DNA of 64,000 nt, taken from assembly GCA_044376085.1 (NCBI GenBank), contig JBILLN010000009.1, positions 524 through 64,523 of the forward strand. The letters run 5' to 3'. Positions 7,017-51,323 of the stretch are shown here, piece after piece. The position numbers and the translations under genes were made by a program. Source of the stretch: Bradymonadia bacterium. GTDB taxonomy: Bacteria; Myxococcota_A; Bradymonadia; UBA7976; UBA1532. Position 1 is the first letter of the stretch. Each line of letters starts with the position of its first letter. The notes beneath the pieces were generated by a model. The model saw nothing but the letters and a program-made list of their open reading frames with translations. It was not told the origin of the DNA and did no database searches.

Positions 7017-8458
7017 ACACCGCGGAGCCGGCCGCCGACCCCGTCCGCGTTTCCCGCACGCGGACCTTTCTGTTCACGCACGCCCTGCTCGCCGGGCTGG
7101 TGGTGGTGGTGGCCGTCATCCAGGACCTCACGCGGGAGGGGGCCGCGCCCGCCCTCGCCCCCTGGATCGGGCCCGCCGTGGGCGCCCTCTCGGGTCTGCT
7201 CGCCTGGGCCGTCTTCGCCCGGCTCGGACCCCGGCCCTGGCTGATTCCCGGCCTGCTGGGGGTCGACAGCGCCGTCCTGACGGTCGCCAACTTTGCACAG
7301 GGCGAGGTCGAGACGCCCTGGAGCGGCATGTGCGTCCTCATGCTGGTCATGCTGCCGCTCTTCACCGGCGGACAACGCGCCGTCTGGGCGCTGGCCGCGT
7401 TCCAGATCGCCTTCTTCGGCGCGGCCATGTACCTCCGGGCGGACGGGGTGATTCCCCCGATCTTCAGCACCACCGATTTCGCCCACGATCCGGCATACGT
7501 CATGGGTTCGGTCCTGATCTTCGCGTTCGTGTGCATCGGTGGGGCCATCCTGGCCGGCCGCACGAGCGTCGACGTGCTGAACAGCCAAGACCAGCTCCGG
7601 CGCGAGATCGATCGCGCCGTGGCCGCCTTGAAGGCCGCGCAGGCGCGCCTGGTGCAGCAGGAGAAGATGCTCGGCCTCGCCAAACTCACCGCCGGCATGG
7701 CGCACGAGATCAACAATCCCCTGACCTTCACGCTGACGAATCTGCGCAGCCTGGAGCGGGACATGGAGGACATCCTGGCGCTTCAGCGCCGCTACGACGA
7801 GGCGCTCGAACACCTCGCCGCGACCGCGCCCGACCTCTACCGGCAGCTCCGGCGGGCCCGGCGCGACCTCCACATCGACGATCCGCAGGCGGTGCTCGGG
7901 GAGCTCGTCCGGGACGCGCAGACGGGCGTCACCCGCGTCCAGACGATCGTCGAGGACCTCAAGACGTTCGCGCGGATGGACGAGGCGCCCTTCAAGGCCA
8001 TCGACGCCGAGACGTTGCGGGCCGGCATCGACTCGACGCTGCGCATGCTGGAGCACGTGCTCGCGGGCCGGGCGCACCTCGTCGTCGAACACGGCGATAC
8101 CGGGACGGTCGACGTGGCCCCGGCACTCCTGAATCAGGTCGTGATGAACCTGGTGCAGAACGCCGCCGAGGCCGTGACGCCGCCCGACGGCCGGGTGCGC
8201 GTCTCGACCCGGCGCGACGGCGACGCGCTGGTGATCGAGGTCGCCGACAATGGTCCGGGGATTCCCGCCGATCTGCGCGAGCGGGTCTTCGACCCGTTCT
8301 TCACCACCAAGACCGTCGGTGAGGGGACGGGCCTGGGGCTCAGCCTCAGCTACCAGATCGTCGATCGCCACGGCGGACGCATCGAGATTGCCACGGCACC
8401 CGAGGGTGGGGCACTGTTGCGAACTGTGCTCCCGGTGGCCGGGAGGTCCCCGTCGTGA
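7013..8458 (+). CDS. Multi-TM sensor histidine kinase
   Basis: TTG 7013 is the only start-like codon upstream of about 6 hydrophobic helices and overlaps the upstream stop (TTGA). H-box [15 protein letters not shown]-box [23 protein letters not shown]. Confidence 0.8.
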
Positions 8459-8474
8459 AACGGAGTCCCAGTCC

Positions 8475-9689
8475 ATGAGCGAGCGGACCGTCACGCCTGC
8501 GCCCCCCGAGCCCGTCGATCCGGAGGCCGAGGACGACGGGCCGGCGCACACCATTCTCATCGTCGACGACGAGCCGATGACCGTCTCGGCGATGCGCCAC
8601 CATCTTCGCCGGCAGTACACCTGCCTGGGGGCCACGCAGGCCAGCCAGGCCCTCGAACTGCTCGAGAAACACGACGTCTCCATCGTCATCTGCGACGAAC
8701 GCATGCCCCACATGGCGGGGCACCAGTTCCTCGAAAAGGTCTCGTCCCGCTGGCCCCACACCAGCCGCATCCTGATGACCGCCTACGCCGACCTGCCCGC
8801 GCTCGTCCGTGCGGTGAACCACGGCCAGATCCTGGGGTATCTCTCCAAGCCATGGCACCCGGACGAGCTCGACACGGTCATCCGCAAGGCCGTCGCGGTG
8901 CAGGACATCATCCGCGAGAAGCAGCGGGTCCAGGCCGATCTGGAGCGGGCCAACGACGACCTCCGGCGCGTCGTGGGCAAGTTGCGCGACTTCACCCACG
9001 CCGTGGCCCACGACCTTCAGGAGCCCCTGCGGACGATCTCGGCGTATGCGTCGATCCTCCAGGACGACGTGGGGCCGAGCCTCGAGGCCGAACCCCGGCA
9101 GTTCCTCGCCGGGATCTCGCGGTGCAGCGAGCACCTGCGCAGCCTCATCGACGATCTCCTTCAGTTCAGCGAGATCGAGCGCCTGCCCCTGCGGCACGTC
9201 CAGGTCGGCCTCGACGACATCGTCCATCAGGCCCGGCGCCTGCTCGATGGCGTCCTGACCGCCGGAGATGCCGAGATCGAGGTCAAGGGCCCCCTGCCCG
9301 CCGTCCACGGCGACCCCGGACGTCTCATCGTGCTGTTCCAGAACCTGATGTCCAACGGTCTCAAGTTCAATCGAAGCCGACCGCGCCGGGTCGAGGTCCA
9401 CCCGGTCGTCGCGGGCCCGGGGCGCGTCGCGGTCATCGTGCGCGACAACGGCATCGGCATCGCCCCGGAGCACCACGAGCGGGTGTTCCAGATCTTCCAT
9501 CGCCTGCACACGAAGTCCGAGTACCCGGGCACCGGCGCCGGTCTGGCGATCGCGCGTCAGGTGGCCGAGGTCCACGGGGGCAGCTTGACGCTCGCCTCGG
9601 CGGTGGGTCAGGGCACCACGTTTCGCGTCGAGTTGGCGGTCAGCGGTGGCCTGCCGGACCGGGGCAGCCTCAGCGGGGTGTCACGCTGA
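8475..9689 (+). CDS. Hybrid receiver-histidine kinase
   Basis: ATG 8475. Receiver (ILIVDDEPM, IVICDERMPHMAG, YLSKPW), then H-box FTHAVAHDLQEPLRTI and ATPase motifs NLMSNGLKFN, DNGIGI, GTGAGLAIA. Confidence 0.88.
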   Translation: MSERTVTPAPPEPVDPEAEDDGPAHTILIVDDEPMTVSAMRHHLRRQYTCLGATQASQALELLEKHDVSIVICDERMPHMAGHQFLEKVSSRWPHTSRILMTAYADLPALVRAVNHGQILGYLSKPWHPDELDTVIRKAVAVQDIIREKQRVQADLERANDDLRRVVGKLRDFTHAVAHDLQEPLRTISAYASILQDDVGPSLEAEPRQFLAGISRCSEHLRSLIDDLLQFSEIERLPLRHVQVGLDDIVHQARRLLDGVLTAGDAEIEVKGPLPAVHGDPGRLIVLFQNLMSNGLKFNRSRPRRVEVHPVVAGPGRVAVIVRDNGIGIAPEHHERVFQIFHRLHTKSEYPGTGAGLAIARQVAEVHGGSLTLASAVGQGTTFRVELAVSGGLPDRGSLSGVSR

Positions 9690-10353
9690 GCACGTAGGCG
9701 CCGCGGTCGGGGTTGGCGCCCCCCGCGTGGCCGTCCACGATGATGTACAGGACCTCGCCCGCTTCGAGGGGGGTGGTGACCTGGCTGAGCGGCGGAAACG
9801 CCGCGTCGTCGTTGCAGGTGATGGCCTCGGCGTCCTGACACGTCGCCCGCACCGAGATCAGGGTGTCCCACTTCGGCTCGGTCGACTCCGTATCGATGCG
9901 CCAGTTGCCCGCGGCCGGCGCCACGAAGCGGTGGAGCACGTCCGGGGACCCGGCGCCCCCGCACGGGCTGCTCGTCGCGTCCGTGGCGCCGGTGGTGTCC
10001 CCCACGTAGCGGAAGCCCGGGCCGTCCGGGTGAGCATTGACGTCGACGGAGGTCACGACGACGTCCGGGGGGCAGTCGATGACCGTGGCATCGGGTGCGG
10101 CCGCGTCCGGCACGTCGGCATCGGGCTCGGCCCCCCCCGACGGCGTGCCGCCCGACGGCGTGCCGCCCGACGGCGTGCCGCCCGACGGCGTGCCGCCCGA
10201 CGGCGTGCCGCCCGACGGCGTGCCGCCCGACGGCGTGCCGCCCGCCGCGGCGCCGGCGTCGTTCTCGTCCGCCTCGTCGCTGCTGCAGGCGCCGGTCGGG
10301 ACGAGGGCGAACACGAGAAGGGCCGCGGTCATGGCCGTCGGGTTGAGTTGCAT
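9670..10353 (-). CDS. Lipoprotein with (GGTPS)x7 linker and a C-terminal PPC-like beta-sandwich domain (assigned by eye)
   Basis: ATG at 10353 preceded by GGAGG. Signal MQLNPTAMTAALLVFALVPTGAC. C-terminal GNWRIDT...DTLISVRATC...CNDD...GEVLYIIVDGH...GAYVLSV. Lower part of the long spurious ORF 9670..13269. Confidence 0.75.
   Translation of the reverse strand: MQLNPTAMTAALLVFALVPTGACSSDEADENDAGAAAGGTPSGGTPSGGTPSGGTPSGGTPSGGTPSGGTPSGGAEPDADVPDAAAPDATVIDCPPDVVVTSVDVNAHPDGPGFRYVGDTTGATDATSSPCGGAGSPDVLHRFVAPAAGNWRIDTESTEPKWDTLISVRATCQDAEAITCNDDAAFPPLSQVTTPLEAGEVLYIIVDGHAGGANPDRGAYVLSVTPR
10136..10240. repeat. Perfect 15-bp tandem repeat x7 (cccgacggcgtgccg), encodes GGTPS x7 on the minus strand
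   Basis: Seven identical consecutive units read directly from the sequence. Confidence 0.95.
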
Positions 10354-10518
10354 CGGTGACCTCCGCTGGTCGATGGTTGCCGCGATCGGTCGATACGATG
10401 CCGGCATGCGGTATGCAGACGCAAGCCGGGGAACGAAATCGACTCCCGATGACCGGGCGCGGCCCCTTTGCCTCGCGCTCATTCCACACCGAGCTCGGCG
10501 CTCGGAAGGAGACGTACC

Positions 10519-13125
10519 ATGAGAGACGACCCGAGAACGACGCCGTCGCCCCGAGGGGTGTCCCCCTTCGGCGCGTCGACCGGCCCGCGGAAATCCGAGG
10601 TCGACCGCCTCGGATTTCCGTCGAGAGCCGGGCTGTTCGGTGCCGGATGCCTTTTGCTGGGCCTCCTTTCGGCCTGCGACCCAGCGGATCCGGACGACAA
10701 GGTGGATGCAGGCGGCGGTGGCGCCGCGACCGGCGGTCAAACGGGCGGCGCCGGCGGCGACGTCGGCGGCAGCACCGGCGGGGGTATCGTCGGCGGCGAC
10801 ACCGGCGGCAACGTCGGCGGCAACGCGGGCGGCACCAGCGGCGGCAACGAGGGCGGCACCACCGGCGGCAGCACCGGCGGCAATACCGGCGGCAACGCGG
10901 GCGGCAGCACCGGCGGCAACGAGGGCGGCAGCACCGGCGGCAGCACCGGCGGCAACGAGGGCGGCAGCACCGGCGGGGCCGGTGGCGAAGAGCCGCCCCC
11001 TTGCCCGGACGCCGATGCGGACGGGCTGTGCGACGCCGAGGACGCCGAGTGCAACGCCGACGGGCAGCCTGCGCTGTGCGACGCGGTCTCCCCCGATTGC
11101 CGCGCGGGCACGGTGCCCGAGGTGGCCAACGGCTGCTATACGGGCCGCTGCGTGACCTGGGCCGAGTGCGGCGGGGCCCCTCCGCCACCGGTGGACCCCT
11201 GCACGCCCGTCGAACCGGGCGAGTTCGGAGACTGCCGCGCCCTCATCGGCTGGGCCGCCAATGGCGACGGCACCTGCGGCATGGTCAGCGGCTGCGGCTG
11301 TGACGACCGCTGCATCGGCCGGGTGTTCGACAGCGAGGAGGCCTGCCTGCTGGCCTGCGTCGCGCCCCCCGAGCCGGCGTTCTGTGGCGGTTTCGCGGGC
11401 ATCCCCTGCCCGGCCGGCGAGATCTGCATCGACGACCCCACCGACGACTGCGACCCGGCAGCCGGCGGCGCGGACTGCGGGGGCATCTGCGTACCGCAGG
11501 CGTGTCCGGACGCCGACTTCGACGGTCGGTGCGACGGCGAGGACGCGGAGTGTAACGCCGACGGCAGCCTCCTGATGTGCCGGCGGGCCCCCCCCATCTG
11601 TCCGCGGGGCACCGTGCCGGAGGTCCGCGAGGGGTGCTACACGGACGCCTGCGTGACCTGGGCCGAGTGCGGCGGGGGCGTCGAAGACGCGTGTGGCCTG
11701 CCCCCGGACCCGGGTCCCTGCGAAGCTGCCATTCGGCGCTTCTACCACGACGCCGCCACGGGGACCTGCCAGGTCTTCATCTACGGAGGCTGCGCCGGCA
11801 ACGCCAACAACTTCGAGACCCTCGAGGCCTGCGAGGCGGCCTGCGGCGGCGCGATGTGCGTCCGCGAACCGAGCCTCTCGCCGCGTGCGCCGATGTACGA
11901 CCGCTACGAAGGCACGGGCTTTCCCAACGCCTGCCGAACGGACGACGACTGCTTCCGCGGCGGCTGCTCGGGCGAGGTCTGCTCGGCCACGCCGGACGTC
12001 GTGACCACCTGCGAGGTGGTGCCCATGCCCGACGGCGCCTGCGGCTGCGTCGCGGGGGAGTGCCAGTGGTTCGTCGACTCGTGCAACGGGGGCTGCCCCG
12101 ACGCCGACCGCGACGGCCTCTGCGATGCCGACGACGGCGAGTGCAATGCCGACGGCAATCCGGCCCTCTGCGACCGCGTCCCGCCGCCCTGCCGCGTCGG
12201 CACGGTGCCCGAGGTCGCCAACGGGTGTTACACCGGCGCCTGCGTCACCTGGGAGGCCTGCGGCGGCGGCGTCATCGACGCCTGCGGCCTGCCCCCGGAT
12301 GCGGGCCCCTGCGACGCCGCCATCCGGCGCTGGTTCCACAACCCCGAGACCGGGGCCTGCGACGTCTTCGTCTACGGCGGCTGCGGGGGCAATGCCAACA
12401 ACTTCGAGTCTCTGGACGCCTGCGAGGCGGCCTGTGGAGGCGTCGCGCCGCCCCCGGCGATGTGCAGTCCGGTCCGCGAGGGCGAATACGGCTTCTGCCT
12501 GGCGGTGATCGGGTACGGCATCGGCGCCGACGGCACCTGCCAGGCCATCAGCGGCTGCGGTTGCGACGACACCTGCATCGGTCGTGTGTTCGAGACGCCG
12601 GAGGGCTGCGAGGCGACGTGCGGCGGGGGCGTCGTCGACGCCTGCGGCCTGCCTGCGGACCCGGGCCCCTGCGACGCGGCGATCCGACGGTGGTTCCACA
12701 ATCCCCAGACGGGTGCCTGCGAGGGCTTCGTGTACGGGGGCTGCGGTGGCAACGGCAACAACTTCGAGAGCCTCGAGGCGTGCGAAGCGGCCTGCGTCCT
12801 CGCCTGCCCGGATGCGGACGTCGACGGGGCCTGTGACGCCGAGGACAGCACCTGCAATGCGGACGGCTCGCTCTTGATGTGCCGCCGCGTGGCGCCCATC
12901 TGCCCCCGCGGCACGGTGGCCGAGGTCCGTGAGGGCTGCTACACCGACGTGTGTCTGACGTGGGCCGAGTGCGCGCGCGCGGTGGCCCCGCCCGTGGGTC
13001 AGGCCTGCGGCGGCTTCGCCGGCTTCCTCTGCCCCGAGGGACTGGCCTGCGTCGACGCTCCGAACGACGGCTGCGATCCTCGCAACGGCGGAGCCGACTG
13101 TCCCGGCGTCTGCGTCGTCCCCTGA
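10519..13125 (+). CDS. Modular Cys-rich lipoprotein with three Kunitz/BPTI domains (putative multi-headed protease inhibitor)
   Basis: AAGGAG SD (10507-10512). Lipobox LLLGLLSAC. Gly-rich (GGSTGGNE-like) linker. Module order A-B-C-A-Kunitz-E-A-Kunitz-B-Kunitz-A-C. The Kunitz domains align by eye to BPTI over all 6 Cys. Confidence 0.88.
11692..11844 (+). other. Kunitz/BPTI domain 1 (Cys1 to Cys6), P1 = Glu
   Basis: [51 protein letters not shown]. 51 residues Cys1-Cys6, as in BPTI C5-C55. GPC-x, YGGC and NNF motifs present. Confidence 0.85.
12283..12435 (+). other. Kunitz/BPTI domain 2, P1 = Asp
   Basis: [51 protein letters not shown]. Confidence 0.85.
12643..12795 (+). other. Kunitz/BPTI domain 3, P1 = Asp
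   Basis: [51 protein letters not shown]. Confidence 0.85.
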
Positions 13126-13156: not shown

Positions 13157-14632
13157 TCAGCGGCGCTGAAGCTGCTTGGCGAAGAGGTCGCCGAGGGTGG
13201 CGGTGCCCCGCTTCTGGTCGGCGGTCTGCTGCTGCCGCCAGGCGCGGAAATCCTCGGCCTCGGAGTCACCCTTCAGGGCCTTGCGCGAGAGGCGGATCTT
13301 CTTGCGCATGCCGCCCTTCTTGCCGTCCTTGCCCTCGAAGGGGACGTCCTCCATCTCGATGATCTTGCACTCGAGCTCGGTGCCGATGGGGTAGACGTCC
13401 TCGGCCCGGGTGCCGCGCTCGTTGTCGCACTCGTTCATGGGGAGCAGGCCGCTGGTGCGCGGTCCGATGTCCACGAAGAGGCCGAAGCGCTCGATGCGCG
13501 AGACGCGGCCCTTCACGATCTGGCCGACCTCGAAGGTGACGGCCGGCGCGCCGCGCTTCTCGAAGACCTCGGGGGTGCAGAGCGCGATGCGGTTCTTCTG
13601 GAGGTCGACGCTCTCGACGACGACCTCGATCGTCTCGCCGGCCTTCAGGACCTCTTCGGGCGTGTTGATGCGCTTGGCCGTGGTGATGGCCGAGACGTGC
13701 AGCAGGCCGTCGATCTCCGGGGCGATGGTCACGAAGGCGCCGTAGGTCTGAATGCGGGCGACGGTGCCGGTGAAGCGCTGGCCGGGCTGGAGGGCCTTGG
13801 CGAACTCCACGAAGGGATCGGCCTGCTCGGTCTCGCCATCGCACAGGCGCAGCGCGATGCGGCCCTTGTCGAGCTCGATCTTGACGACCGTGACCTCGAC
13901 GGCATCCCCGACGTTGAGGCGCTCGCTGGGGTGTTTGACCCGCTTCTTGCCCATCTCGCTGACGTGGATGAGGCCCTCGACGCCCCCGATGTCCACGAAC
14001 GCGCCGAAGTCACGGATCTGCGTGACGTGGCCCTGCAGCGTCTCGCCCACCTGGACCTTGCCGGCGATGGCTTCTTTGTTCTTCTCGCGCGCGGCCTCGA
14101 GCAGCGCCCGGCGGGAGACGACCGCCCCCTTGTGGTCGTCCCACTCGGTGATGCGGAACTCGAACTCCTCGCCCACCATGGTCTGCGGGTCCTGGATGAA
14201 GCGGTCGGCGAGCTGGCTCAGCGGGCAGAAAGCGCGGACGCCTTCGATGCGGATCTCGTAGCCGCCCTTGTTGATGCCCACGACGCGGCCGCGGACGGTC
14301 TCCTGCTTCTTCCAGGCTTCCTTCAGGGCGATGCGGGCCTTGCCGGCCTGCGCGTCGCGGAAGCTCAGCCGGACGTAGCCCTTCGTCTCGGCGACGACGA
14401 AATCGAGCGTGGATCCGACGTCGTGGACCAACACGCCGTGCTCGTCCCGGAGTTCGGCGAGGTTCACCATGCCCTCGCTCTTGGCGCCGTAGTCGACGAA
14501 CGCGGCCTCCCCCGTGATCTTGACGATCTTGCCGCTGACGACGTCCCCCGTGGAGGTCGTCCGGCCGGAGAAGCTCGTCTCCATCAGTTCGTTCATCTCG
14601 TTCGTCGCATCGGGAGTAGGGCGGTACGTCAT
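13157..14632 (-). CDS. Multi-S1-domain RNA-binding protein (ribosomal protein S1-like)
   Basis: Five or more repeats of the S1 fold signature (G.VV.G.V..I....AFVD.G...EGL.H.SE.). Lys-rich C-terminal tail. Confidence 0.88.
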   Translation of the reverse strand: MTYRPTPDATNEMNELMETSFSGRTTSTGDVVSGKIVKITGEAAFVDYGAKSEGMVNLAELRDEHGVLVHDVGSTLDFVVAETKGYVRLSFRDAQAGKARIALKEAWKKQETVRGRVVGINKGGYEIRIEGVRAFCPLSQLADRFIQDPQTMVGEEFEFRITEWDDHKGAVVSRRALLEAAREKNKEAIAGKVQVGETLQGHVTQIRDFGAFVDIGGVEGLIHVSEMGKKRVKHPSERLNVGDAVEVTVVKIELDKGRIALRLCDGETEQADPFVEFAKALQPGQRFTGTVARIQTYGAFVTIAPEIDGLLHVSAITTAKRINTPEEVLKAGETIEVVVESVDLQKNRIALCTPEVFEKRGAPAVTFEVGQIVKGRVSRIERFGLFVDIGPRTSGLLPMNECDNERGTRAEDVYPIGTELECKIIEMEDVPFEGKDGKKGGMRKKIRLSRKALKGDSEAEDFRAWRQQQTADQKRGTATLGDLFAKQLQRR

Positions 14633-14708: not shown

Positions 14709-14873
14709 GTCGGGCACGGCCGGGGGGAGCGAATGCGTCGGTTCGCCCGGATTGATCGACGTCAAATCGTCGCCCCTCAAGCGATCCGGTGACTTTCACC
14801 GTACCCTCGGGAGAAGGCACCCTCCGCGTCGGGGAAACGCGGAAGGGGACCCCCCCGCCCGCGTCGGAATCCC

Positions 14874-15302
14874 ATGCTTCACCTCGAGTCCGCCCGAATG
14901 CCCGCCATTTCGCCTCTGGTCTGGAGTCCGGTCTACGAAACGGGCATCGCCGAACTCGACGCCCAGCACCGCCGGCTCTTCGATCTGGTCGACGAGGTGG
15001 GCGCGCGGGCCCTGCTGCCCGGGGGCGATCGGGCGGCCACCTTCGAAGAGGTCTTCGACCGCCTCACGGACTACGCCCAGTTCCACTTCGACTACGAGGA
15101 GGAGCTGCTCGCGGCGTCGAATCTGCCGCGGGCGGAGCACGACGCCCACCTGGCCACCCATCGGGCGTTCATCCGTCAACTCCAGGTCCTGTGGAGCGAA
15201 CGGCACGGGTTCGAGCACGTCGGCGAGTCCCTGCACCGGTTCCTCGGGGCGTGGCTGACGGACCACGTCCTGCGGGACGACCTCGCCGGGATGCTCCGGT
15301 AG
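14874..15302 (+). CDS. Hemerythrin-like metal-binding protein (bacteriohemerythrin)
   Basis: WSPVYETGIAELDAQHRRLFDLV, HFDYEEELL, HDAHLATHRAF and WLTDHV match the His/Glu/Asp ligand pattern. Start could be 14874 or 14898. Confidence 0.85.
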   Translation: MLHLESARMPAISPLVWSPVYETGIAELDAQHRRLFDLVDEVGARALLPGGDRAATFEEVFDRLTDYAQFHFDYEEELLAASNLPRAEHDAHLATHRAFIRQLQVLWSERHGFEHVGESLHRFLGAWLTDHVLRDDLAGMLR

Positions 15303-16820: not shown

Positions 16821-16956
16821 GGGCGCACTCTGAACCCGGCCGCGGGGTGCTGACAAGTCGGGGGTGCGCGCGCCGACGGCGCTTGACCCCATGCGCGGGG
16901 CGGGGTCATGGTACGGACGCGCCAGTCCGGAAACGTGTCAGGAGACCCGAAAGCCC

Positions 16957-19005
<2,049 letters not shown>

Positions 19006-19027
19006 GCCCGCTGGAGAGCCCACACCC

Positions 19028-20146
19028 ATGTCCCGGATCAAACAGGATCACAGCCGGTTCCGGCAGATCGTCCGCGGGAAGATTCGCCAGAATCTCAAGA
19101 AGTACATTTCCCGGGGCGAGCTGATCGGCAAGCAGGGCAAGGACGTCGTGTCCATTCCCCTGCCGCAGATCGACACGCCGCGGTTCAAGTACGATCCCAA
19201 GGACACCGGCGGCACGGGACAAGGCGACGGCAAACCGGGCGACAGCCTCGGCCCCGGCAACCAGCAGCCGGGGCAAGGCAAAGAGAAGGCCGGCGAGGGC
19301 GAGGGCGAGAAGTCCGTCGAGGTGGACGTCACCCTCGACGAACTTGCCGAAATCCTCGGCGAGGAGCTGCAACTGCCCCGCATCGAGCCCAAGGGGCAGA
19401 AGCAGGTCGTCACCGAACGGGACCGCTATACCGGCATCCGCCCCGTCGGCCCCGACTCGCTGCGACACTTCAAGCGCACGTTCAAACAGGCGCTCAAGCG
19501 AACGGTCGCGACGGGGCAGTACGACGCCGCGAACCCCATCGTGGTGCCCATCCGGCACGACATGCGCTACCGCACGTGGAACACCATCTCGTCGCCCCAG
19601 AGCAATGCCGTCGTCATCTACATGATGGACGTCTCGGGCTCCATGGGCGACGAACAGAAAGAGATCGTCCGCATCGAGTCTTTCTGGATCAACACCTGGC
19701 TGCGCAGTCAGTACAAAGGCATCGCGACGCGGTACATCGTGCACGACGCGACCGCGCGCGAGGTGGACGAACACACGTTCTTTCACACCCGCGAGTCGGG
19801 TGGCACGATGATCTCCAGCGCCTACAAGCTCTGCGCCCAGATCATCAAGGACGAGTATCCCAGCGCGGACTGGAACATCTATCCGTTCCACTTCAGCGAC
19901 GGCGACAACTGGTCCGTCGATGACACCGCGGCCTGTGTGCGCATCCTGAAAGAAGACGTCGTGCCGGCCAGCAACCAGTTCAGCTACGGGCAGGTGGAGA
20001 GCCCCTACGGCAGCGGACAGTTCATCAAGGACCTGCGCGAGCAGTTCAAGATCTCCGATCCCGACTGCAAGGTCGTCGTCAGCGAGATCAAGGACAAAGA
20101 GGCCATCATCCGGTCCATCAAAGACTTCCTCGGCGCGGGACGCTAG
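19028..20146 (+). CDS. yeaH: YeaH/YhbH family protein (DUF444, vWA-like)
   Basis: [27 protein letters not shown]..., [18 protein letters not shown] (MIDAS-like DxSxS). Position directly after prkA. Confidence 0.92.
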
Positions 20147-20157
20147 GAGACCGAGCC

Positions 20158-21684
20158 ATGATTCAATATCTCCACGTCCGCCCCCTGCCGCCCGAACTCT
20201 GGGAGTGGAAGGTCAAGATCGAGAAGATCGCCCGCGACTGCGGTCTCGACTTCTTCGAGACCATCTTCGAGGTCATCGACTACGACAAGATGAACGAGAT
20301 CGCGGCTTACGGCGGGTTTCCCACCCGCTACCCGCACTGGCGCTTCGGCATGGAGTACGAGCAGCTCTCCAAGTCGTACTCCTACGGTCTCAGCAAGATC
20401 TACGAACTGGTCATCAACACGGACCCCTGCACGGCCTACCTGCTGGAGGGCAACGAGATGATCGACCAGAAGCTCGTGATGGCCCACGTCTACGGCCACT
20501 GCGACTTCTTCAAGAACAACTACTACTTCAGCGGCACCAACCGGAAGATGATCGATGTGATGGCGAACCACGCGACCCGCGTGCGCAATTACATGGATCT
20601 CCACGGGCCGAACCAGGTCGAAGAGTTCATCGACGTCTGTCTCTCGCTGGAAAACATGATCGACCGCATGCGGCCCTACATCCGGCGAACCCCCGCCGAG
20701 CCGCAGCGCAAACGCAAGGAAGACCTGCCCGACGAGCTGCTCGGCGAGGTCGTCGTCCCTCGGCTGAAGGCCAAGGAATACATGGACGACTTCGTCAACC
20801 CCGAGGCCTATCTGGAAACCCAGAAGAAGAAGGCCGTCGAGGAAGCCGCGAAACAGGCACGGTTTCCGGCCCACGCCGAGCGTGACGTGCTCTGGTTCCT
20901 GATGGAGCACGCCCCCCTGCAGAAGTGGCAGCGCAACCTGCTCGGCATGATCCGGGAAGAGGCCTACTACTTCGCGCCCCAGGGCATGACGAAGATCATG
21001 AACGAGGGCTGGGCCAGCTACTGGCATGCTCACATCATGACCCGCAAGGTCTGCGACGACAGCGAGATCATCGACTTCGCGGACCGCCACAGCGGCACCA
21101 TGGCGACCTCCAAGGGCCGTCTGAACCCCTACAAACTCGGCATCGAGCTCTTCCGCAACATCGAGGACCGCTGGAACAAGGGTCAGTTCGGCAAAGAGTA
21201 CGACGAATGCGACGACATGGCCGAGCGCGCCCACTGGGACCGCCGCCTCGGCCTCGGGCGACAGAAGATCTTCGAGGTGCGGCGGCTCTACAACGACGTG
21301 ACGTTCCTCGACGAGTTCCTCACCCCCGAGTTCTGTCAGGAGCAGAAACTCTTCACGTTCCAGCACAATCGCAAGGCCGACGAGTGGCAGATCGCCACCC
21401 GTGAGTTCAAAGAGGTGAAGAAGAAGCTCCTCTTCCAGCTCACCAACATGGGTCAGCCGGTCATCGAGGTCGAAGACGCCAACTTCGAGAACCGCGGTGA
21501 GCTCCTGCTGCGGCACCTGCACGAAGGCATCGACCTGCACGACGAGTACGCCCGCGAGACGATGAGCAATCTGTTCAAGATCTGGAAACGGCCCGTGCAC
21601 GTGGCCACCCGGAAGGGCACCAAGGGCATGCTCTTGACCCACGACGGCCAGAAGCACACCGAGCGCGCGTTCGAGGTGGCATGA
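20158..21684 (+). CDS. spoVR: SpoVR/YcgB family protein
   Basis: [53 protein letters not shown]: characteristic SpoVR sequence. Third gene of the conserved triad. Confidence 0.93.
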
Positions 21685-25587: not shown

Positions 25588-28101
25588 ATGCCCGTACCGA
25601 CCCGGACGCACCACCGACACGGGTGGTCACCCACGATCGTCACCTTCTTCGCCCTGCTGGCCCTCCCGGGCTGTCTCCCCGGCGAGTCCGAGTCGGACCC
25701 CGACGGCGGTACGCCGGCCCCGACGGGCGGGACGCCCGCGACCGGGGGTACGCAGCCCGATGCCGGCGGCCTGCAGGCCTGTACGGTCGACACGGACTGC
25801 ACGCTGCCGAACTCGATCTGCGGTGCGGGCTTCTGTCGCGAACTGCCGGGCGGTGCGTGCACGACCGATCGCGACTGCCCCATCGGGACGCTCTGCGCGG
25901 CCGGCGCGTGCGTCCGCGAACCCGTCCGCTGCGATACCGACCGGGACTGCCCCGAGCCCGGGACGACCTGCGAGAACGGCGTCTGCGCGGCGGCTCCGCC
26001 GGACGGGTGCCAGACCGACCGCGAGTGCCCGCCCGGCCAGGTCTGCGACGCCGGCGCCTGCGTGCCTGCCGAGCCCGAGTGCAGCGTCGACGACGACTGT
26101 GGCCCGGGGCGCGCGTGCCGCGAGGGGATCTGCGTGGGCGACGGGCCCGAGTGCAGCACCGACGAGGACTGCCCCGAGGGCCGCACCTGCCGCGACGGCC
26201 GCTGCCTCGCGAACGGCGCCTGTGAGGGTGACTTCGAATGCGCGCCCGACGAGTCCTGTGACGCCGGTGTCTGCGTGCCGCGCGCCCCCGCCTGCGAGGG
26301 GGACGCCGACTGCGGTCCCGGCGAAGTCTGCCGGGACGCCGCGTGCGTACCCGATCTGCCGCCGTGCGGCCAGGACTCGGACTGCCCCGGGGCGCTCGTC
26401 TGTCGCGAGGGTCTGTGCGTTCCCGACGACGCGGAGTGCCTCGTCGACGCGGATTGTCCGGAGGGCGGGACGTGCGAGGCCGGCGCCTGCGTGCCGGTCA
26501 CCCCGGCCTGCGGGCCGGATGCGGAGTGCCCGCCCGACAGCCGCTGCGAAGACGGCGTGTGCGTCCTCGTCGAGCCGGGGTGCGCGGTCGACGCCGACTG
26601 CGGCGCCGGCGGGCGATGCGTCGCCGGCACCTGCGAGGCGGCGCCCGCGGACTGCGTCGGCGATGGCGACTGCGCAGCGAACGAGATCTGCCGGGACGGC
26701 GCCTGCGTGCCGGACCTGCCCGAGTGCGTGGCCGATGCCGACTGCGGCGCCGGCCGCATCTGTTCGAACAACGTCTGCGTCGACGCCCCCGAGGAGTGCC
26801 GCGTGGACGCCGATTGCCCCGCCGGCGAGATCTGTACCCGGGGCGCGTGCGTGGCCCCCCCGCCGGAGTGCGTCGCCGACCGGGACTGTCCCGCCGGGGA
26901 GACCTGCCGGGCCGGGGTCTGTGTCGGCGCCCCCGTCGGCTGCACGGGTGACCTCGGCTGTCCGCTCGGACAACTCTGTCTCGCGGGCGCCTGCCGCGCC
27001 CCCGGGCCCGCCCCGGCCCCCGTCCGCTGCAATCCGCGCGCGGTCGACCCCGGCTGCCCGGACACCCAGCTCTGCGTCCCGACCCAGGCCTGTGCGCTCG
27101 ACGCCGCCAACTGCGCCGGTGTCTGCGCGCCGAGCACCTGCGACCCCTGCCTGACCGGTGACGCCTGCGGCGACCAGCTCGCGAGCTGTATTCCCGGCTA
27201 CCCCGCGGCGTTCTGTGTTTCGGCCGGCGTCGCCGACGAGGGAGAGCCCTGCGACCTCGACGGCGCCGTTCATTGCCGCGCCGGCCTGACCTGTCTGGGT
27301 GGCGTCTGTTCGGCCCCGTGCGGCGGCGCCGCATGCGGTGCCGGTGCCCGGGACTGCGCCGCCGGTCGTGCCTGCGTCGACTTCGACCACCTCAACGGCA
27401 ATGCGCCCCTGGCGCTTTGCGTCGATGACTGCGACCTCTTCGGGCAGCGCGGCTGCGCGGCCGGTGAAACCTGCGCGTACTCGACGGTCCAGCCCGACAC
27501 GCTCACCGTCGTCGGCCTGTGCACGGACGCCGCACCGTCGGGCCGCCTCGTTCAGGGCCAGGCCTGTGTGCCCGGTGAGGCCGCGTACTGGGGCAACTGC
27601 CGCTCGGACCACTTCTGCGCCGAGGGCGTCGACCCCGATGGCGCCCAGTGTTTCGGGATCTGTACCGTCGAAGACCAGCGCAACTGTACCGGGCTTTCCT
27701 ACTGCGTCATCGGGGCCATCGACCCCCGCCTCCCGGTGGGCGCCTGTGTCGGTGAGTGCGATGTCTTCGGCGGCGGTTGCGGAGGCGGGCAGGTCTGTCG
27801 ATACGCGGGTGTGGGTCAGGACGAGCAGGGCACGGACGTCTTCACCGGCCTCTGCGAATTCTCGGCCGCCGATCTCCAGACCGAGTCCTTCTGCGAAGTG
27901 GCCGCCGACGGCTCGAGCGGATGCCCCCTCGGCACACTGTGCGCCGACACGGGGGACTTCTTCGGCGCGACGTGCGTCCAGCTCTGCGACGTGTCGCCCG
28001 GCAGCGCCCGGGGATGCCCCGACGGGCGCACCTGTACGACGAACGTCTTCGCCGCCGACCGGACGGGCGGCGCCAGTCAGACGCTGGGGGCGTGTCTCTG
28101 A
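25588..28101 (+). CDS. Lipoprotein with 17 tandem 4-Cys repeats plus a Cys-rich C-terminal domain
   Basis: GGAG SD. Lipobox FFALLALPGC. Repeat unit C-x3-(D/E)-C-x5-C-x4-C, about 25-27 aa (for example CSVDDDCGPGRACREGICV). Confidence 0.8.
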   Translation: MPVPTRTHHRHGWSPTIVTFFALLALPGCLPGESESDPDGGTPAPTGGTPATGGTQPDAGGLQACTVDTDCTLPNSICGAGFCRELPGGACTTDRDCPIGTLCAAGACVREPVRCDTDRDCPEPGTTCENGVCAAAPPDGCQTDRECPPGQVCDAGACVPAEPECSVDDDCGPGRACREGICVGDGPECSTDEDCPEGRTCRDGRCLANGACEGDFECAPDESCDAGVCVPRAPACEGDADCGPGEVCRDAACVPDLPPCGQDSDCPGALVCREGLCVPDDAECLVDADCPEGGTCEAGACVPVTPACGPDAECPPDSRCEDGVCVLVEPGCAVDADCGAGGRCVAGTCEAAPADCVGDGDCAANEICRDGACVPDLPECVADADCGAGRICSNNVCVDAPEECRVDADCPAGEICTRGACVAPPPECVADRDCPAGETCRAGVCVGAPVGCTGDLGCPLGQLCLAGACRAPGPAPAPVRCNPRAVDPGCPDTQLCVPTQACALDAANCAGVCAPSTCDPCLTGDACGDQLASCIPGYPAAFCVSAGVADEGEPCDLDGAVHCRAGLTCLGGVCSAPCGGAACGAGARDCAAGRACVDFDHLNGNAPLALCVDDCDLFGQRGCAAGETCAYSTVQPDTLTVVGLCTDAAPSGRLVQGQACVPGEAAYWGNCRSDHFCAEGVDPDGAQCFGICTVEDQRNCTGLSYCVIGAIDPRLPVGACVGECDVFGGGCGGGQVCRYAGVGQDEQGTDVFTGLCEFSAADLQTESFCEVAADGSSGCPLGTLCADTGDFFGATCVQLCDVSPGSARGCPDGRTCTTNVFAADRTGGASQTLGACL
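25780..26995 (+). repeat. Coding tandem array: 17 copies of an approximately 78-bp 4-Cys repeat (diverged at DNA level)
   Basis: Counted from the translated protein between CTVDTDC... and ...CLAGACRAP. Confidence 0.7.
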
Positions 28102-39793: not shown

Positions 39794-40175
39794 GGGTGAA
39801 TCCTCGACCGCGCGCGGGTCGGGAACACACCCGGGCTGCCGCGGCGGCGTCGACGAGCCGGAATGTCTGCCGCTGGCGACCGCTCGGCGTGCAACGGACT
39901 CGACCTTCCGGCGAGTCGTCACAGGGTCGCGCGACGGTTCGGGTCGACGGTAGGCGTGGGTCCGGGGAGCGTCAACCCGTGGCGGGGTCACGCATCTCAC
40001 CGGTCACACCGCCTCCGGCGCGGAACCCATTGAATCAACTCATGAATTCGCCCAATCTGCCGAACTGGCCATTGACCTCGATCAAGCGACACACGACGAC
40101 AGATCCGAATTCGTTGCCGGGTGGCACACGTGTATGGGATGGGCAGGGTCCGGGGGAGCAATGGGAGGTGTGCAC

Positions 40176-50405: not shown

Positions 50406-51323
50406 ATGCCCGACGACGACGACCGAGAGAACACCGACGGCGAGCCCCACAGCGTCTCGTCGGTGGTCCGCAAGGACAACGGCGACATCCACATCGCCAT
50501 CACCATCAACAACAACAACAGCAACGACCGCGGGGCGACGATCTCCGGGGACGAAATCGGCGACGAGTACGGCGGCGGCGCTCCGGCGGCCTCGGCCCAC
50601 GTCCATCCCGCAGCCGGCCCGGGCTTCGCCCCGACGCTCGACGCGGCCGTGCCGTCGCCCTTCGTGCGCGGCGCCCTCGACGACGCCTTCGCCGCGGCTC
50701 CGGTCTACACCAAGGGTCTCGCGCCGTTTTCGGCGGACCCGGCCGCGACCGGCGAACGCCCCACCGCGCGGCTCACCGTCGGCGGCCTCGTCGCGCACGG
50801 GCGAGCGGCCCTCTTCACGCCGGCGCGCGTTCACGAGGCGCTGGCCATCTACCAGGGTCTCTGCATCGTGGAGGTCGGGGCCGGCAACGCCCCGGACACC
50901 GTGACGCTCGTCCCCGGCCCCGCCTCGCCCGACGCCGTCTGGACCCATGCCGCCCACGCCCTGCGGACGGGCCTCGTCGGCGGCCACTACCGGCTCGCGG
51001 TCGCCCCCGCCCGCGAAATGAAGGGCAAACGCGGTGCCGGTGAAGCGGCCTTCGCGGTCACCCTGACCCCGGTCGGAGACCCGCTCGGCGGATTCCTCAA
51101 CGTCATCCCGGCCAAGGCGGCCGCCGTGGCGAGCCTCGAGGCCTACGGCGCGCGCGCCGCCTGCGTCCCGGTTCCGGCGAGCGGTGGCCCGCTGACCGTT
51201 CCGCGCCCGGCCGGGGCCGCCGACGACGACGCGTTCTTCTTCGTCGTCACCAGCACCCGCCCGGACGCCGTGTCTCCGCCGTTGCTCGAGGTGCGCTCCA
51301 ACGTCGCCTGCGTGGGTCCCTGA
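50406..51323 (+). CDS. Hypothetical protein (acidic, Asn-rich N-terminus, no signal peptide)
   Basis: GGAGA SD 7 nt upstream. 305-codon ORF. No recognised motifs. Confidence 0.5.
   Translation: MPDDDDRENTDGEPHSVSSVVRKDNGDIHIAITINNNNSNDRGATISGDEIGDEYGGGAPAASAHVHPAAGPGFAPTLDAAVPSPFVRGALDDAFAAAPVYTKGLAPFSADPAATGERPTARLTVGGLVAHGRAALFTPARVHEALAIYQGLCIVEVGAGNAPDTVTLVPGPASPDAVWTHAAHALRTGLVGGHYRLAVAPAREMKGKRGAGEAAFAVTLTPVGDPLGGFLNVIPAKAAAVASLEAYGARAACVPVPASGGPLTVPRPAGAADDDAFFFVVTSTRPDAVSPPLLEVRSNVACVGP

Follow-up and report, generated by a model that had tools for sequence, protein, structure and literature searches.

A cysteine-rich mosaic lipoprotein with Kunitz-type domains from a Bradymonadia bacterium, a putative tethered inhibitor of serine endopeptidases

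The multi-Kunitz inhibitors of metazoans (MEROPS family I2), such as bikunin, TFPI, boophilin, and papilin, carry several inhibitory heads with differing P1 residues on one chain. Their domains show a 51-residue layout with six cysteines, the PROSITE signature PS00280, and the loop elements G-P-C-P1-A and Y-G-G-C. Papilins are extracellular-matrix proteins with Kunitz arrays. Ecotin and bacterial A2M are periplasmic or membrane-anchored broad-range inhibitors that protect the envelope, typically without an adjacent cognate protease gene; ecotin acts by dimeric chelation and A2M by thioester trapping. To our knowledge, proteinaceous protease inhibitors have been poorly explored in bacteria, and few inhibitors of this kind are known for Glu/Asp-specific endopeptidases. 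A canonical Kunitz array annotated as bacterial is F6W77 of Acinetobacter baumannii, a secreted protein of ∼300 aa with five Kunitz domains, three of which are reported as anticoagulant, with two of these inhibiting factors XIa and Xa (PMC11511053, Toxins 2024).

The mosaic lipoprotein described here is encoded on contig JBILLN010000009.1 of a Bradymonadia bacterium, in a stretch of 64,000 nt that was analyzed as a whole and is called the window below. Its three canonical Kunitz domains (K1 to K3) share the layout, signature, and loop elements of the metazoan inhibitors, and it likewise combines several heads of differing P1 on one chain. In contrast to them, it has a bacterial host, a lipobox anchor, a Gly-rich tether, acidic P1 residues in the canonical heads, interleaved modules of types A, C, and E, which are absent from animals as far as known, and two predicted four-disulfide heads invisible to the Pfam Kunitz model. 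Compared by description, F6W77 is also an array of canonical Kunitz domains, whereas it comes from a pathogen and lacks the lipobox, the Gly linker, and the A/B/C/E modules; the mosaic protein is of environmental Myxococcota origin, with acidic residues at P1. The likeness to ecotin and A2M is a functional analogy between envelope-located inhibitors: the folds are unrelated, and the mosaic protein would use the canonical loop of the standard mechanism.

Kunitz domains are less exceptional in bacteria than the initial annotation, made from the window alone, had assumed when it called bacterial examples rare. Among the results of the homology search are multi-Kunitz proteins encoded in metagenome-assembled genomes (MAGs) of Acidobacteriota, Gammaproteobacteria, and Myxococcota and on many metagenome contigs, some of them fused to Kazal domains, and the closest homologue is named [quoted passage not shown] at NCBI. 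P0018 (Acidobacteriota), P0036 and P0037 (Gammaproteobacteria), P0118, P0040, and others share one bacterial Kunitz subgroup with the mosaic K domains, at 67 to 75% identity. An acidic P1 residue is found in 17 of 25 named-bacterial Kunitz domains. Proteins of this type are plain tandem arrays or Kunitz-Kazal fusions, and none of those inspected shows the A/B/C/E mosaic or the synteny of the mosaic gene. The mosaic protein is real, and its novelty is moderate.

The gene starts with ATG, and the MRDD start of the protein is common to the syntenic orthologue P0003. GC contents of 0.69, 0.63, and 0.90 at the three codon positions are typical of real genes in this window of 72% GC. Module HMMs seeded with repeats of the window itself recover exactly the order A-B-C-A-K-E-A-K-B-K-A-C read in the initial annotation, giving 12 modules (four A, two B, two C, one E, and three K), and detect no A, B, C, E, or K copy elsewhere in the window (Table 1). 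All 90 cysteines are assigned: Cys44 lies in the signal peptide, Cys53 in the lipobox, and the remaining 78 + 10 in modules, with eight in each A and B, six in each C and K, and 10 in E. The even count and the placement of each cysteine in a module imply a probable oxidizing, extracytoplasmic location. Of the 12 modules, three are textbook Kunitz domains, two are cryptic Kunitz variants, and seven are Cys-rich modules of other types.

Table 1. Features of the mosaic lipoprotein gene and its divergent neighbor, in window positions
Feature	Positions	Strand	Basis and remarks
Small lipoprotein, divergent, 227 aa	9670..10353	-	Conserved neighbor of the mosaic gene; (TPSGG)7 linker, ∼130-aa C-terminal domain
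Ribosome-binding site GGAAGGAGA	10504..10512	+	Sequence read; 6 nt 5' of ATG
CDS, Cys-rich mosaic lipoprotein precursor	10519..13125	+	ORF; 868 aa; stop codon included
Signal peptide, aa 1-53	10519..10677	+	Pattern match; long charged n-region, hydrophobic core, lipobox
Gly-rich flexible linker, aa ∼62-157	10702..10989	+	Translation; GGxxGG-type repeats
Module A1	11002..11169	+	Module HMM, 87.2 bits; 8 Cys; CPDADxDGxCDxxDxxC half, then GTVPEVxxGCYTxxCVTWxxC
Module B1	11197..11358	+	hhalign, PDB profile, AF2, Foldseek; 8 Cys; GDC-R-A-LIG (P1-equivalent Arg, P1' Ala)
Module C1	11383..11490	+	Module HMM, 53.9 bits; 6 Cys; CGGFAGxxCPxGxxCxDDPxDxCDPxxGGADCxGxC
Module A2	11503..11670	+	Module HMM, 91.5 bits
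Kunitz K1	11692..11844	+	PF00014, Cys spacing, PS00280; loop GPC-E-AAIR (P1 Glu), second loop IYGGC
Module E	11857..12084	+	Module HMM, 120 bits; 10 Cys, ∼76 aa; “eight-cysteine-cluster”-like
Module A3	12094..12261	+	Module HMM, 86.7 bits
Kunitz K2	12283..12435	+	PF00014, Cys spacing, PS00280; loop GPC-D-AAIR (P1 Asp)
Module B2	12460..12621	+	Module HMM, 79.4 bits, family of B1; GFC-L-A-VIG (P1-equivalent Leu, P1' Ala)
Kunitz K3	12643..12795	+	PF00014, Cys spacing, PS00280; loop GPC-D-AAIR (P1 Asp)
Module A4	12805..12972	+	Module HMM, 87.9 bits
Module C2, C-terminal module	13006..13113	+	Module HMM, 57.5 bits

The three Kunitz/BPTI domains claimed in the initial annotation are genuine. Its proposed check of the translation against Kunitz_BPTI (PF00014, gathering cutoff of 21 bits) yields significant matches in three stretches, with 191.7 bits, an E value of 1.9e-57, and profile positions 1-52/53. 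The exact spacing C-8-C-15-C-7-C-12-C-3-C is found by regular expression three times (aa 392 to 442, 589 to 639, and 709 to 759), and PS00280 also matches three times (aa 420 to 438, 617 to 635, and 737 to 755). The binding-loop determinants are intact in K1 to K3 (GPC[E/D]AAIR, [IV]YGGC, and GN[AG]NNF), each domain having Gly12-Pro13-Cys14-P1-Ala16, Tyr35-Gly36-Gly37-Cys38, Asn43, and Phe45. The disulfides are assumed to be 1-6, 2-4, and 3-5, as taken from this very strong match. The acidic P1 residues of K1 to K3 (Glu, Asp, and Asp) are atypical yet allowed for the Kunitz family, and every K head across the mosaic family has Asp, Glu, or Asn at this position. Variants of BPTI and OMTKY3 with an acidic P1 are poor binders of trypsin, chymotrypsin, and elastase, so the K heads may be binding modules that do not inhibit, as is the case for some metazoan Kunitz domains.

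The N terminus shows the lipobox and the Gly-rich linker noted at the outset. The lipobox L-S-A-C (aa 50 to 53, nt 10666 to 10677; LLGLL-S-A-C at aa 46 to 53) follows a hydrophobic stretch. It fits, as a pattern match, [LVI][ASTVI][GAS]C at the end of the hydrophobic signal-peptide core, with the basic residues Arg30 and Arg36 before it, and leaves a predicted mature N terminus of C-D-P-A-D-P-D-D. Most of the full-length homologues examined have an equivalent lipobox (e.g., P0003, P0009, P0020, P0131, and P0025), and comparable Gly-rich linkers occur in P0003, P0004, P0009, P0020, and P0021. The linker DNA is a degenerate tandem repeat of 12/36 nt (positions 10744 to 10976). In Myxococcus xanthus, lipoprotein sorting depends on Lys at +2 for the inner membrane and Ala at +7 for the matrix (PMC3222651). 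The mosaic lipoprotein matches neither signal, with Asp at both +2 and +7, and since these residues fit neither the inner membrane nor the matrix, an outer membrane location is inferred by elimination under the rules of this distant myxobacterium. Of the earlier description as surface tethered, the lipid anchoring is indicated by the sequence; the surface face is not.

Module B is predicted to be a cryptic Kunitz-fold domain of a previously unrecognized four-disulfide subtype, on the basis of profile-profile comparison, PDB profile matches, an AlphaFold2 (AF2) model, and Foldseek. Neither B1 nor B2 matches Kunitz_BPTI in Pfam even at an E value of ≤10, and homologues with B only have no precomputed PF00014 match. 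The hhalign comparison of B with Kunitz, marginal alone, gives a probability of 74% and an E value of 2.8e-5 over 46 columns, with Cys2 to Cys6 and a Phe in register. Against the PDB, the B profile has boophilin (E value of 0.061) and BPTI (E value of 0.1) as its sole matches, each marginal singly, and the B HMM weakly matches K1 to K3 (E values of 0.03 to 0.075). Structure prediction, as suggested in the initial annotation, is confident for B: the AF2 model, computed on an alignment of B sequences only (pLDDT, 92.5; pTM, 0.78), has strands at residues 19 to 24 and 30 to 34 and a helix at residues 50 to 58, i.e., a hairpin and a C-terminal helix. All 50 of the 50 PDB matches listed by Foldseek for this model are Kunitz domains, with probabilities of up to 0.98 and TM scores of 0.46 to 0.66, mostly 0.57 to 0.66; the E values of 0.04 to 0.7 are marginal, as expected for a domain of ∼55 aa.

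The positional orthologue P0009 adds evolutionary evidence. It aligns colinearly with the mosaic protein at 63% identity, and a B module, flanked by conserved A and E modules, lies opposite K1. This sharing of one slot suggests that B is positionally and functionally equivalent to a canonical Kunitz module. The P1-equivalent residues of B across the family are Arg (17), Asp (12), Glu (9), Leu (2), and Ala (1), and P1' is Ala in 32 of 41 B modules. Because B is thereby limited to a few residue types at P1 and K to Asp, Glu, or Asn, the restricted pattern is suggestive of selection for specificity, not of decay. As B1 and B2 join K1 to K3 as Kunitz-fold modules, the mosaic protein is predicted to have five Kunitz-type heads with P1 residues of Glu, Asp, Asp, Arg, and Leu and with P1' Ala throughout.

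The modules A, C, and E are structurally more obscure. Neither A nor C matches Pfam at an E value of ≤10, as single modules or as sets of 38 C and 36 A members, and their profiles, like module E, find no relative in the PDB. In contrast to B, E-A-C gives a poor model (pLDDT, 64.9) for which Foldseek finds no fold match, the best being IGFBP-type domains with probabilities of ≤0.12. Module E, initially credited with 8 or 9 cysteines, contains 10 over its ∼76 aa. It matches the eight-cysteine-cluster model TIGR04289 with 40.7 bits (E value of 2.8e-10; profile positions 1-52/52), below the curated NCBIfam cutoff of 50 bits, and is likely a distant relative of that domain; JGI labels homologues “eight-cysteine-cluster” proteins. 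In the literature, the E-type domain has drawn a single comment, a speculation about biofilm (PMC10667668). The Asp-rich motif D-x-D-x-D-G of module A shows faint echoes of TSP3_bac and EF-hand. Companion domains of the A and C modules are Kazal in 6 of 10 cases and Antistasin in 2 of 10, as well as PrcB_C, and both modules occur together with Kunitz in P0120 and P0131. Module C, a candidate partner of Kazal and Kunitz domains in bacteria, is present in >1000 representative proteins.

Syntenic orthologues of the mosaic gene are found at the loci L001 to L003, L005, and L028. Between orthologous loci, the mosaic gene is 62% identical, compared to 87 to 96% for the flanking genes, and whole modules have been gained and lost. 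The mosaic gene is a member of a lipoprotein family of uncultured Myxococcota/Bradymonadia that evolves fast and shuffles its modules. Other members from these groups (P0004, P0009, P0020, P0021, P0010, and others), annotated as “eight-cysteine-cluster-containing protein” or hypothetical, likewise have a lipobox, a Gly-rich linker, and shuffled A/B/C/E modules but lack canonical Kunitz domains and have B in the K1 slot; P0009 shares the gene neighborhood of the mosaic gene. The canonical K modules have been acquired or retained only in the subclade of the window protein, P0002, and P0003 (and P0131). The family offers a clean natural case of module gain, loss, and swapping within a positional orthologue.

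The mosaic protein is probably a lipid-anchored, disulfide-rich envelope protein and a putative tethered, multispecific inhibitor of serine endopeptidases. The multiheaded inhibitor proposed in the initial annotation is still the best reading and is strengthened by B as a predicted Kunitz fold, which raises the heads to five, and by the occurrence of A and C with Kazal and Antistasin elsewhere. We infer lipidation, location, inhibitory activity, target classes, and whether foreign or own proteases are the targets. Following Sec export, the protein would be lipidated at Cys53, and the Gly-rich linker of ∼95 residues would extend the 12 modules with their ∼44 disulfides. Each of the five heads, the canonical K1 to K3 and the four-disulfide B1 and B2, would present a canonical Cys-P1-Ala loop and inhibit a single protease molecule in the substrate-like manner of the standard mechanism. 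Here, the K heads (Glu, Asp, and Asp) would act on Glu/Asp-specific S1 endopeptidases, B1 (Arg) on trypsin-like enzymes, and B2 (Leu) on chymotrypsin-, elastase-, or subtilisin-like enzymes. A, C, and E would serve as spacer or accessory modules, and A and C may also inhibit or bind Ca2+ in their own right. Counted against inhibition are the lack of a consistently adjacent protease gene and the 7 of 12 modules (A, C, and E) without a recognized fold.

The protein might instead be a structural or adhesive component of the matrix or envelope, a papilin-like, Ca2+-stiffened, disulfide-rich stalk whose Kunitz-fold and other modules bind protein or polysaccharide or act as spacers and do not inhibit. 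This is a clearly weaker candidate, although papilins are the highest-scoring named non-bacterial matches, the acidic P1 of the family's canonical heads is unfavorable for most proteases, and the Asp-rich motif of module A, the seven modules without recognized function, the biofilm speculation, and the missing protease neighbor all fit it. Against a stalk speak the full conservation of the canonical and second-loop residues, a P1 limited to charged residues or Leu without drift, the B heads with Arg and Leu, which resemble ordinary inhibitors, and the fact that A and C are accompanied specifically by inhibitor domains (Kazal, Antistasin, and Kunitz). Less probable again is that the protein inhibits proteases that the cell itself secretes or keeps in the periplasm, for self-protection or for a timed release in predation or development. 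Myxobacteria secrete many proteases; on one related contig, the gene of a 376-aa Kunitz protein, unrelated to the mosaic family, adjoins a Trypsin_2 gene; an M6 InhA-like peptidase is encoded two genes from P0021; and the hybrid histidine kinase conserved upstream of the mosaic gene could regulate. However, the conserved syntenic block contains no cognate protease at three orthologous loci, and rapid evolution with module turnover is a better fit to antagonists from outside than to a fixed partner within the cell.

An effector role, with heads acting dendrotoxin-like on channels or receptors of prey or eukaryotes after membrane release or on vesicles, is very unlikely. Kunitz scaffolds are channel blockers in animal venoms, the beta-bungarotoxin B chain and huwentoxin-XI are among the Foldseek matches, and myxobacteria are predators, but the protein is strongly acidic, without the basic surface signature of such toxins, its lipid anchor and long linker speak for a role on the cell, and no secretion-system or immunity genes lie near the mosaic gene in the window. 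Metazoan contamination or a misassembled chimera would account for a mostly metazoan domain whose best metazoan counterparts are 61 to 65% identical to the K domains. This origin is effectively ruled out by synteny and composition and has a negligible probability: the GC content of 72% and GC3 of 0.90 resemble those of the neighboring genes, a ribosome-binding site and lipobox are present, the gene recurs in the same bacterial synteny on contigs obtained independently from several metagenomes and MAGs, and none of 135 bacterial Kunitz domains has a metazoan nearest neighbor.

A wider proposal, put forward tentatively, regards the A/B/C/E(/K) lipoproteins as an undescribed set of combinatorial, rapidly reshuffled inhibitor cassettes in bacteria, with B as a novel Kunitz subfamily of four disulfides, new small inhibitor folds in C and possibly in A and E, and the acidic-P1 heads as natural high-affinity inhibitors of Glu/Asp-specific endopeptidases. 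Should the family indeed act as tethered inhibitors, predatory soil bacteria would carry membrane-tethered inhibitor arrays with exchangeable heads, some hidden from standard models, and the known range of the Kunitz fold would be enlarged. The abundant Cys-rich modules A, C, and E would then be candidates for new inhibitor or Ca2+-binding folds, and the heads would provide natural scaffolds with Asp/Glu, Arg, and Leu at P1, of practical use in engineering selective inhibitors.

The gene neighborhood does not bear out a protease-defense theme shared with the A2M-like gene, as initially suggested. The A2M gene is genuine (positions 44693 to 50335; MG2, A2M, and TED domains), but it is unlinked, lying 31 kb from the mosaic gene with unrelated genes for a kinase, PrkA/SpoVR, a desaturase, a permease, and others between them, and the 64-kb window contains no gene for a secreted endopeptidase. 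Protease genes are also absent next to P0009, P0018, and P0118. The divergent 227-aa lipoprotein, which has no Pfam match, is encoded in the same position at L001, L002, and L028 with 62 to 65% identity, compared to 80 to 96% for the flanks, and its gene contains a perfect 15-nt repeat of 7.3 copies (positions 10136 to 10244). The fast change and module turnover of the mosaic gene and this neighbor are typical of an antagonistic interface, and a functional link between the two lipoproteins is possible.

The Cys-rich lipoprotein precursor P0001 is probably a tethered serine-protease inhibitor of several specificities, as predicted from its module content. The protein has 868 amino acids, of which 90 are Cys (10.4%). 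GGAAGGAGA lies 6 nt 5' of the ATG, the MRDD start is common to the protein and an orthologue, and the GC3 of the frame is 0.90, as in the window's other real genes (window GC content, 72%). Pfam Kunitz_BPTI matches three times (191.7 bits against a cut-off of 21; E 1.9e-57), and both the exact spacing C-8-C-15-C-7-C-12-C-3-C and PROSITE pattern PS00280 also occur three times, bearing out the three Kunitz/BPTI domains of the initial annotation. The claimed order of twelve modules, A-B-C-A-K-E-A-K-B-K-A-C (K1 to K3 being canonical Kunitz domains and A, B, C, and E other Cys-rich types), is reproduced exactly by HMMs built on the protein's own repeats; regular expressions written by hand failed to detect most copies of B and E. 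Module E is present as described, with 10 Cys over ~76 aa instead of the 8 or 9 counted initially. All 90 Cys residues are assigned: 1 to the signal-peptide core, 1 to the lipobox, and 88 to the twelve modules. The module HMMs find zero further copies of any module elsewhere in the window, and an exact look-up of the protein returns no database record. Scans of the gene's flanks show no promoter or terminator, as expected for an organism with 72% GC and a non-sigma-70 consensus.

Features of the mosaic gene and its surroundings (positions within the window)
Feature	Position	Strand	Remarks
Hybrid response-regulator/histidine kinase	8250-9689	+	
Small divergent lipoprotein	9670-10353	-	divergent from mosaic gene
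Tandem repeat in small lipoprotein gene	10136-10244		perfect, 15 nt x7.3; encodes (TPSGG)7 linker
Mosaic ORF	10519-13125	+	ATG at 10519; stop codon ending 13125
Linker DNA of mosaic gene	10744-10976		degenerate 12/36-nt tandem repeat
Five-S1-domain protein	13157-14632	-	convergent
Hemerythrin	14793-15302	+	
PrkA-DUF444-SpoVR	16864-21684	+	downstream three-gene cluster
Second Cys-rich lipoprotein	25588-28098	+	837 aa, 113 Cys; lipobox LLALPGC
Giant protein	33290-40000	-	2236 aa; 13 CarboxypepD_reg-like domains, then long pentapeptide-repeat regions
A2M-like gene	44693-50335	+	MG2, A2M, TED domains; 1880 aa
ORF after A2M	50406-51320		no Pfam match

Module B shows no Pfam match, even at E <= 10. 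On iteration, the B HMM came to include Kunitz sequences (488 "B" domains), which was taken as a lead only and retested with strictly separated sets of B and K. The profile of 27 B modules matches the Kunitz profile with 74% probability (E 2.8e-5), with Cys2 to Cys6 and the conserved Phe in register, and among all PDB sequences it matches only boophilin (E 0.061) and BPTI (E 0.1). The AlphaFold2 model of B1, made from a 41-row alignment containing zero canonical Kunitz sequences, reaches a pLDDT of 92.5 and a pTM of 0.78 and shows a beta-hairpin and then a C-terminal helix, as in Kunitz domains. All 50 matches listed in a Foldseek search of this model against the PDB are Kunitz domains, including PN2-KPI, BPTI and its P1 variants, APPI, boophilin, HAI-2, collagen VI C5, and Kunitz-type toxins, with TM-scores of 0.46 to 0.66 (mostly 0.57 to 0.66), probabilities up to 0.98, and marginal E-values of 0.04 to 0.7, as expected at ~55 residues. 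A colinear alignment with P0009, a positional orthologue, covers 376 columns at 63% identity and places K1 opposite a B module, with conserved A and E modules on either side. We conclude that B is a predicted Kunitz-fold module with two extra Cys residues, which presumably form a fourth disulfide; the predicted partners are the first Cys of GCGC and the Cys of C-x-G-R-V-F. With B1 and B2 beside K1 to K3, the protein would thus carry five Kunitz-type heads.

The reactive sites of these heads differ in P1, the residue after Cys14 in BPTI numbering. P1 is Glu in K1 (loop GPC-E-AAIR), Asp in K2 and K3 (both GPC-D-AAIR), Arg in B1 (GDC-R-ALIG), and Leu in B2 (GFC-L-AVIG), and P1' is Ala in five of five heads. 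K1 to K3 retain an intact second loop, (V/I)YGGC, and an intact N-N-F motif. Throughout the mosaic family, canonical K heads always have Asp, Glu, or Asn at P1, and the B modules have Arg (17), Asp (12), Glu (9), Leu (2), or Ala (1), with Ala at P1' in 32 of 41. An acidic P1 (Asp or Glu) is found in 17 of 25 named-bacterial Kunitz domains, compared to 10% of 360 metazoan domains, which mostly contain Arg or Lys. The main rival explanation is a non-inhibitory role in matrix or adhesion, which is unlikely. The restriction of P1 to charged residues beside an invariant small P1' looks, at the level of sequence, like selected specificity and not decay. P1 variants of BPTI and OMTKY3 show that an acidic P1 binds poorly to trypsin, chymotrypsin, and elastase and fits Glu-specific S1 endopeptidases. 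Given this P1-variant work and the P1 identities, an inhibitory protein would direct its K heads at Glu/Asp-specific enzymes, B1 at trypsin-like enzymes, and B2 at chymotrypsin-, elastase-, or subtilisin-like enzymes. A literature search for Kunitz inhibitors of glutamyl endopeptidases found nothing.

Animals provide the classic multi-headed Kunitz inhibitors. In bacteria, automatic annotation already labels Kunitz proteins as such, and the one relevant paper that literature searches on bacterial Kunitz turned up reports active Kunitz domains of a five-Kunitz protein of A. baumannii (PMC11511053). New here are the predicted architecture of a lipid-anchored mosaic on a Gly-rich tether; the identification of B as a Kunitz subtype with four predicted disulfides, invisible to Pfam; the bias toward acidic P1; the finding that K and B replace each other in one slot of positional orthologues; and the association of modules A and C, abundant and so far unassigned, with Kazal, Antistasin, and Kunitz proteins. 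The K domains of the window are 67 to 84% identical to bacterial or metagenomic domains, compared to 61 to 65% with the best metazoan (papilin-like) domains. For 27 named-bacterial Kunitz domains, 0 of 135 nearest neighbors from other proteins are metazoan, and the mean identity is 61% among bacteria and 48% between bacteria and metazoa; the bacterial domains therefore form a coherent subgroup of their own, occurring in Myxococcota, Acidobacteriota, and Gammaproteobacteria and on many unbinned contigs. Nothing in this biased sample of 51-residue domains points to a particular animal lineage as the source of a recent transfer. Metazoan contamination was rejected on composition, synteny, and nearest-neighbor analysis.

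The lipobox and Gly-rich linker described initially are both found: a hydrophobic core at residues 37 to 53 ends in L-S-A-C and is followed by a linker of ~95 residues. Equivalent lipoboxes occur in most full-length homologues examined, e.g., P0003, P0009, P0020, P0131, and P0025. In Myxococcus xanthus, Lys at +2 of the mature lipoprotein specifies the inner membrane and Ala at +7 the matrix, and the A27D change at +7 of FibA leads to retention in the outer membrane (PMC3222651). The predicted mature N-terminus of the mosaic protein, C-D-P-A-D-P-D-D, fits neither signal, and by elimination under the rules of this distant relative, the protein is a putative outer-membrane lipoprotein, for which the surface tethering proposed initially is a possibility.

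The closest homologues stem from uncultured Myxococcota. They include P0002 (65% identity), named [quoted passage not shown] at NCBI, and P0003 from JGI metagenomes; Kunitz-free homologues from Myxococcota and Bradymonadia include P0004, P0009, P0020, P0021, and P0010. The module orders are A-B-C-A-K-E-A-K-A-B-A-K-C in P0002, A-C-A-K-E-A-K-A-K-C in P0003, B-C-A-B-E-A-C in P0009, and C-A-B-E-A-C in P0020. P0003 shares the neighborhood of the window's gene (with hybrid kinase, small divergent lipoprotein, orthologue, five-S1-domain protein, hemerythrin, 509-aa protein, and PrkA), and so does P0009 (Band_7, polyprenyl synthase, kinases, small lipoprotein, orthologue, and S1). Compared with the P0003 locus, the flanking proteins are 87 to 96% identical (S1, 94%; PrkA, 96%; kinase, 87%), whereas the mosaic protein is 62% identical with indels of whole modules and the small lipoprotein is likewise 62% identical; the mosaic gene is thus fast evolving and shuffles modules within a conserved neighborhood. 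At this locus, canonical K modules are confined to the subclade formed by the window, P0002, and P0003 and are absent from P0009, which indicates that an existing A/B/C/E gene acquired or lost K. By sequence, the window's K1 (P1 Glu) most resembles the second K in P0002 and P0003 (84%), and its K2 most resembles their first K, so heads have been swapped or converted between slots among orthologues. The B-like modules of the related protein P0137 are intermediate between B and canonical Kunitz, e.g., GGCPAECDDACRARNF and GGCPAEC...ARNF.

The proposed regional protease-defense theme with the A2M-like gene is not supported. That gene is genuine, yet 31 kb and unrelated genes separate it from the mosaic gene, and no secreted endopeptidase gene is found within the window. 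In the neighborhoods surveyed, no protease gene recurs consistently beside other family members or beside independent bacterial Kunitz proteins. The mosaic gene looks like a putative stand-alone inhibitor, by analogy with ecotin. The only leads to a protease neighbor are an M6 peptidase gene two genes from P0021 and a Trypsin_2 gene beside an unrelated Kunitz gene. The latter two lie on the JGI 3300059473 contig, ~4 kb from P0004, a Kunitz-free mosaic gene; there, a 376-aa Kunitz_BPTI protein directly adjoins a 464-aa Trypsin_2 (PF13365) protease gene, and the two may form an inhibitor-protease pair in a related genome. The small divergent lipoprotein may be a functional partner of the mosaic protein. 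It occupies the same position in the related loci L001, L002, and L028, yet it is 62 to 65% identical and so evolves as fast as the mosaic gene; its C-terminal domain of ~130 aa has no Pfam match and contains a PPC-like "..CNDDA.." motif. The PrkA, DUF444, and SpoVR cluster is kept in L001. No PBP1c-type partner of the A2M-like gene is seen. The second Cys-rich lipoprotein comprises ~20 tandem hairpin-like repeats, "C..D.DCP.G..C..G.CV" (Pfam DUF7107 x4; E 3.7e-30); DUF7107 is also precomputed for the mosaic-family protein P0033, and P0059 and P0025 contain interspersed hairpins of a similar type.

Single modules of types A, C, and E match no Pfam family at E <= 10, alignments of all 36 to 38 members of A and C show no consistent family at this threshold, and the A, C, and E profiles find no meaningful relative among PDB sequences. 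Module E scores 40.7 bits against TIGR04289 ("eight-cysteine-cluster domain"), under the cut-off of 50; in the only paper found that mentions this domain, a role in biofilm is offered as speculation (PMC10667668). The N-terminal half of module A, C-P-D-A-D-x-D-G-x-C-D-x-x-D, shows faint, nonsignificant echoes of TSP3_bac and EF-hand, a sequence pattern that suggests putative Ca2+ binding. Large TSP_3/Cu-binding MopE-like proteins are encoded near family members (L028, 9662-12769, minus strand; L030, 6161-7916, plus strand), and their Asp-rich, Ca-binding-type extracellular repeats recall this half of A. Structure prediction, proposed earlier for the modules, yields a Kunitz fold for B and leaves E-A-C without a significant fold match. 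The E-A-C model, of the natural segment P0020 aa 325 to 514 with an alignment tiled from natural E-A, A-C, and E-A-C segments, has moderate confidence (pLDDT 64.9), and the top rows of its fold search, IGFBP-type N-terminal domains at probability <= 0.12, are a weak lead.

With a Kunitz-free member of the family as the query, an exhaustive search by phmmer finds 1049 representative proteins at E <= 1e-3, many of them small proteins of 2 to 16 tandem C modules and others A/B/C/E mosaics. P0099 and P0135 are examples of tandem-C proteins. Ten larger relatives with unexplained sequence contain Kazal (6 of 10), Antistasin (2 of 10), and PrcB_C (1 of 10) domains. Modules A and C thus appear associated with serine-protease-inhibitor domains, which is guilt by association and not proof. 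The linkers of P0120 (C-C-K-K) and P0211 (Kazal x5 and C x3) are rich in Ser/Thr, and both proteins have a C-terminal transmembrane anchor and look eukaryotic (protist-like), so that module C may cross domains of life.
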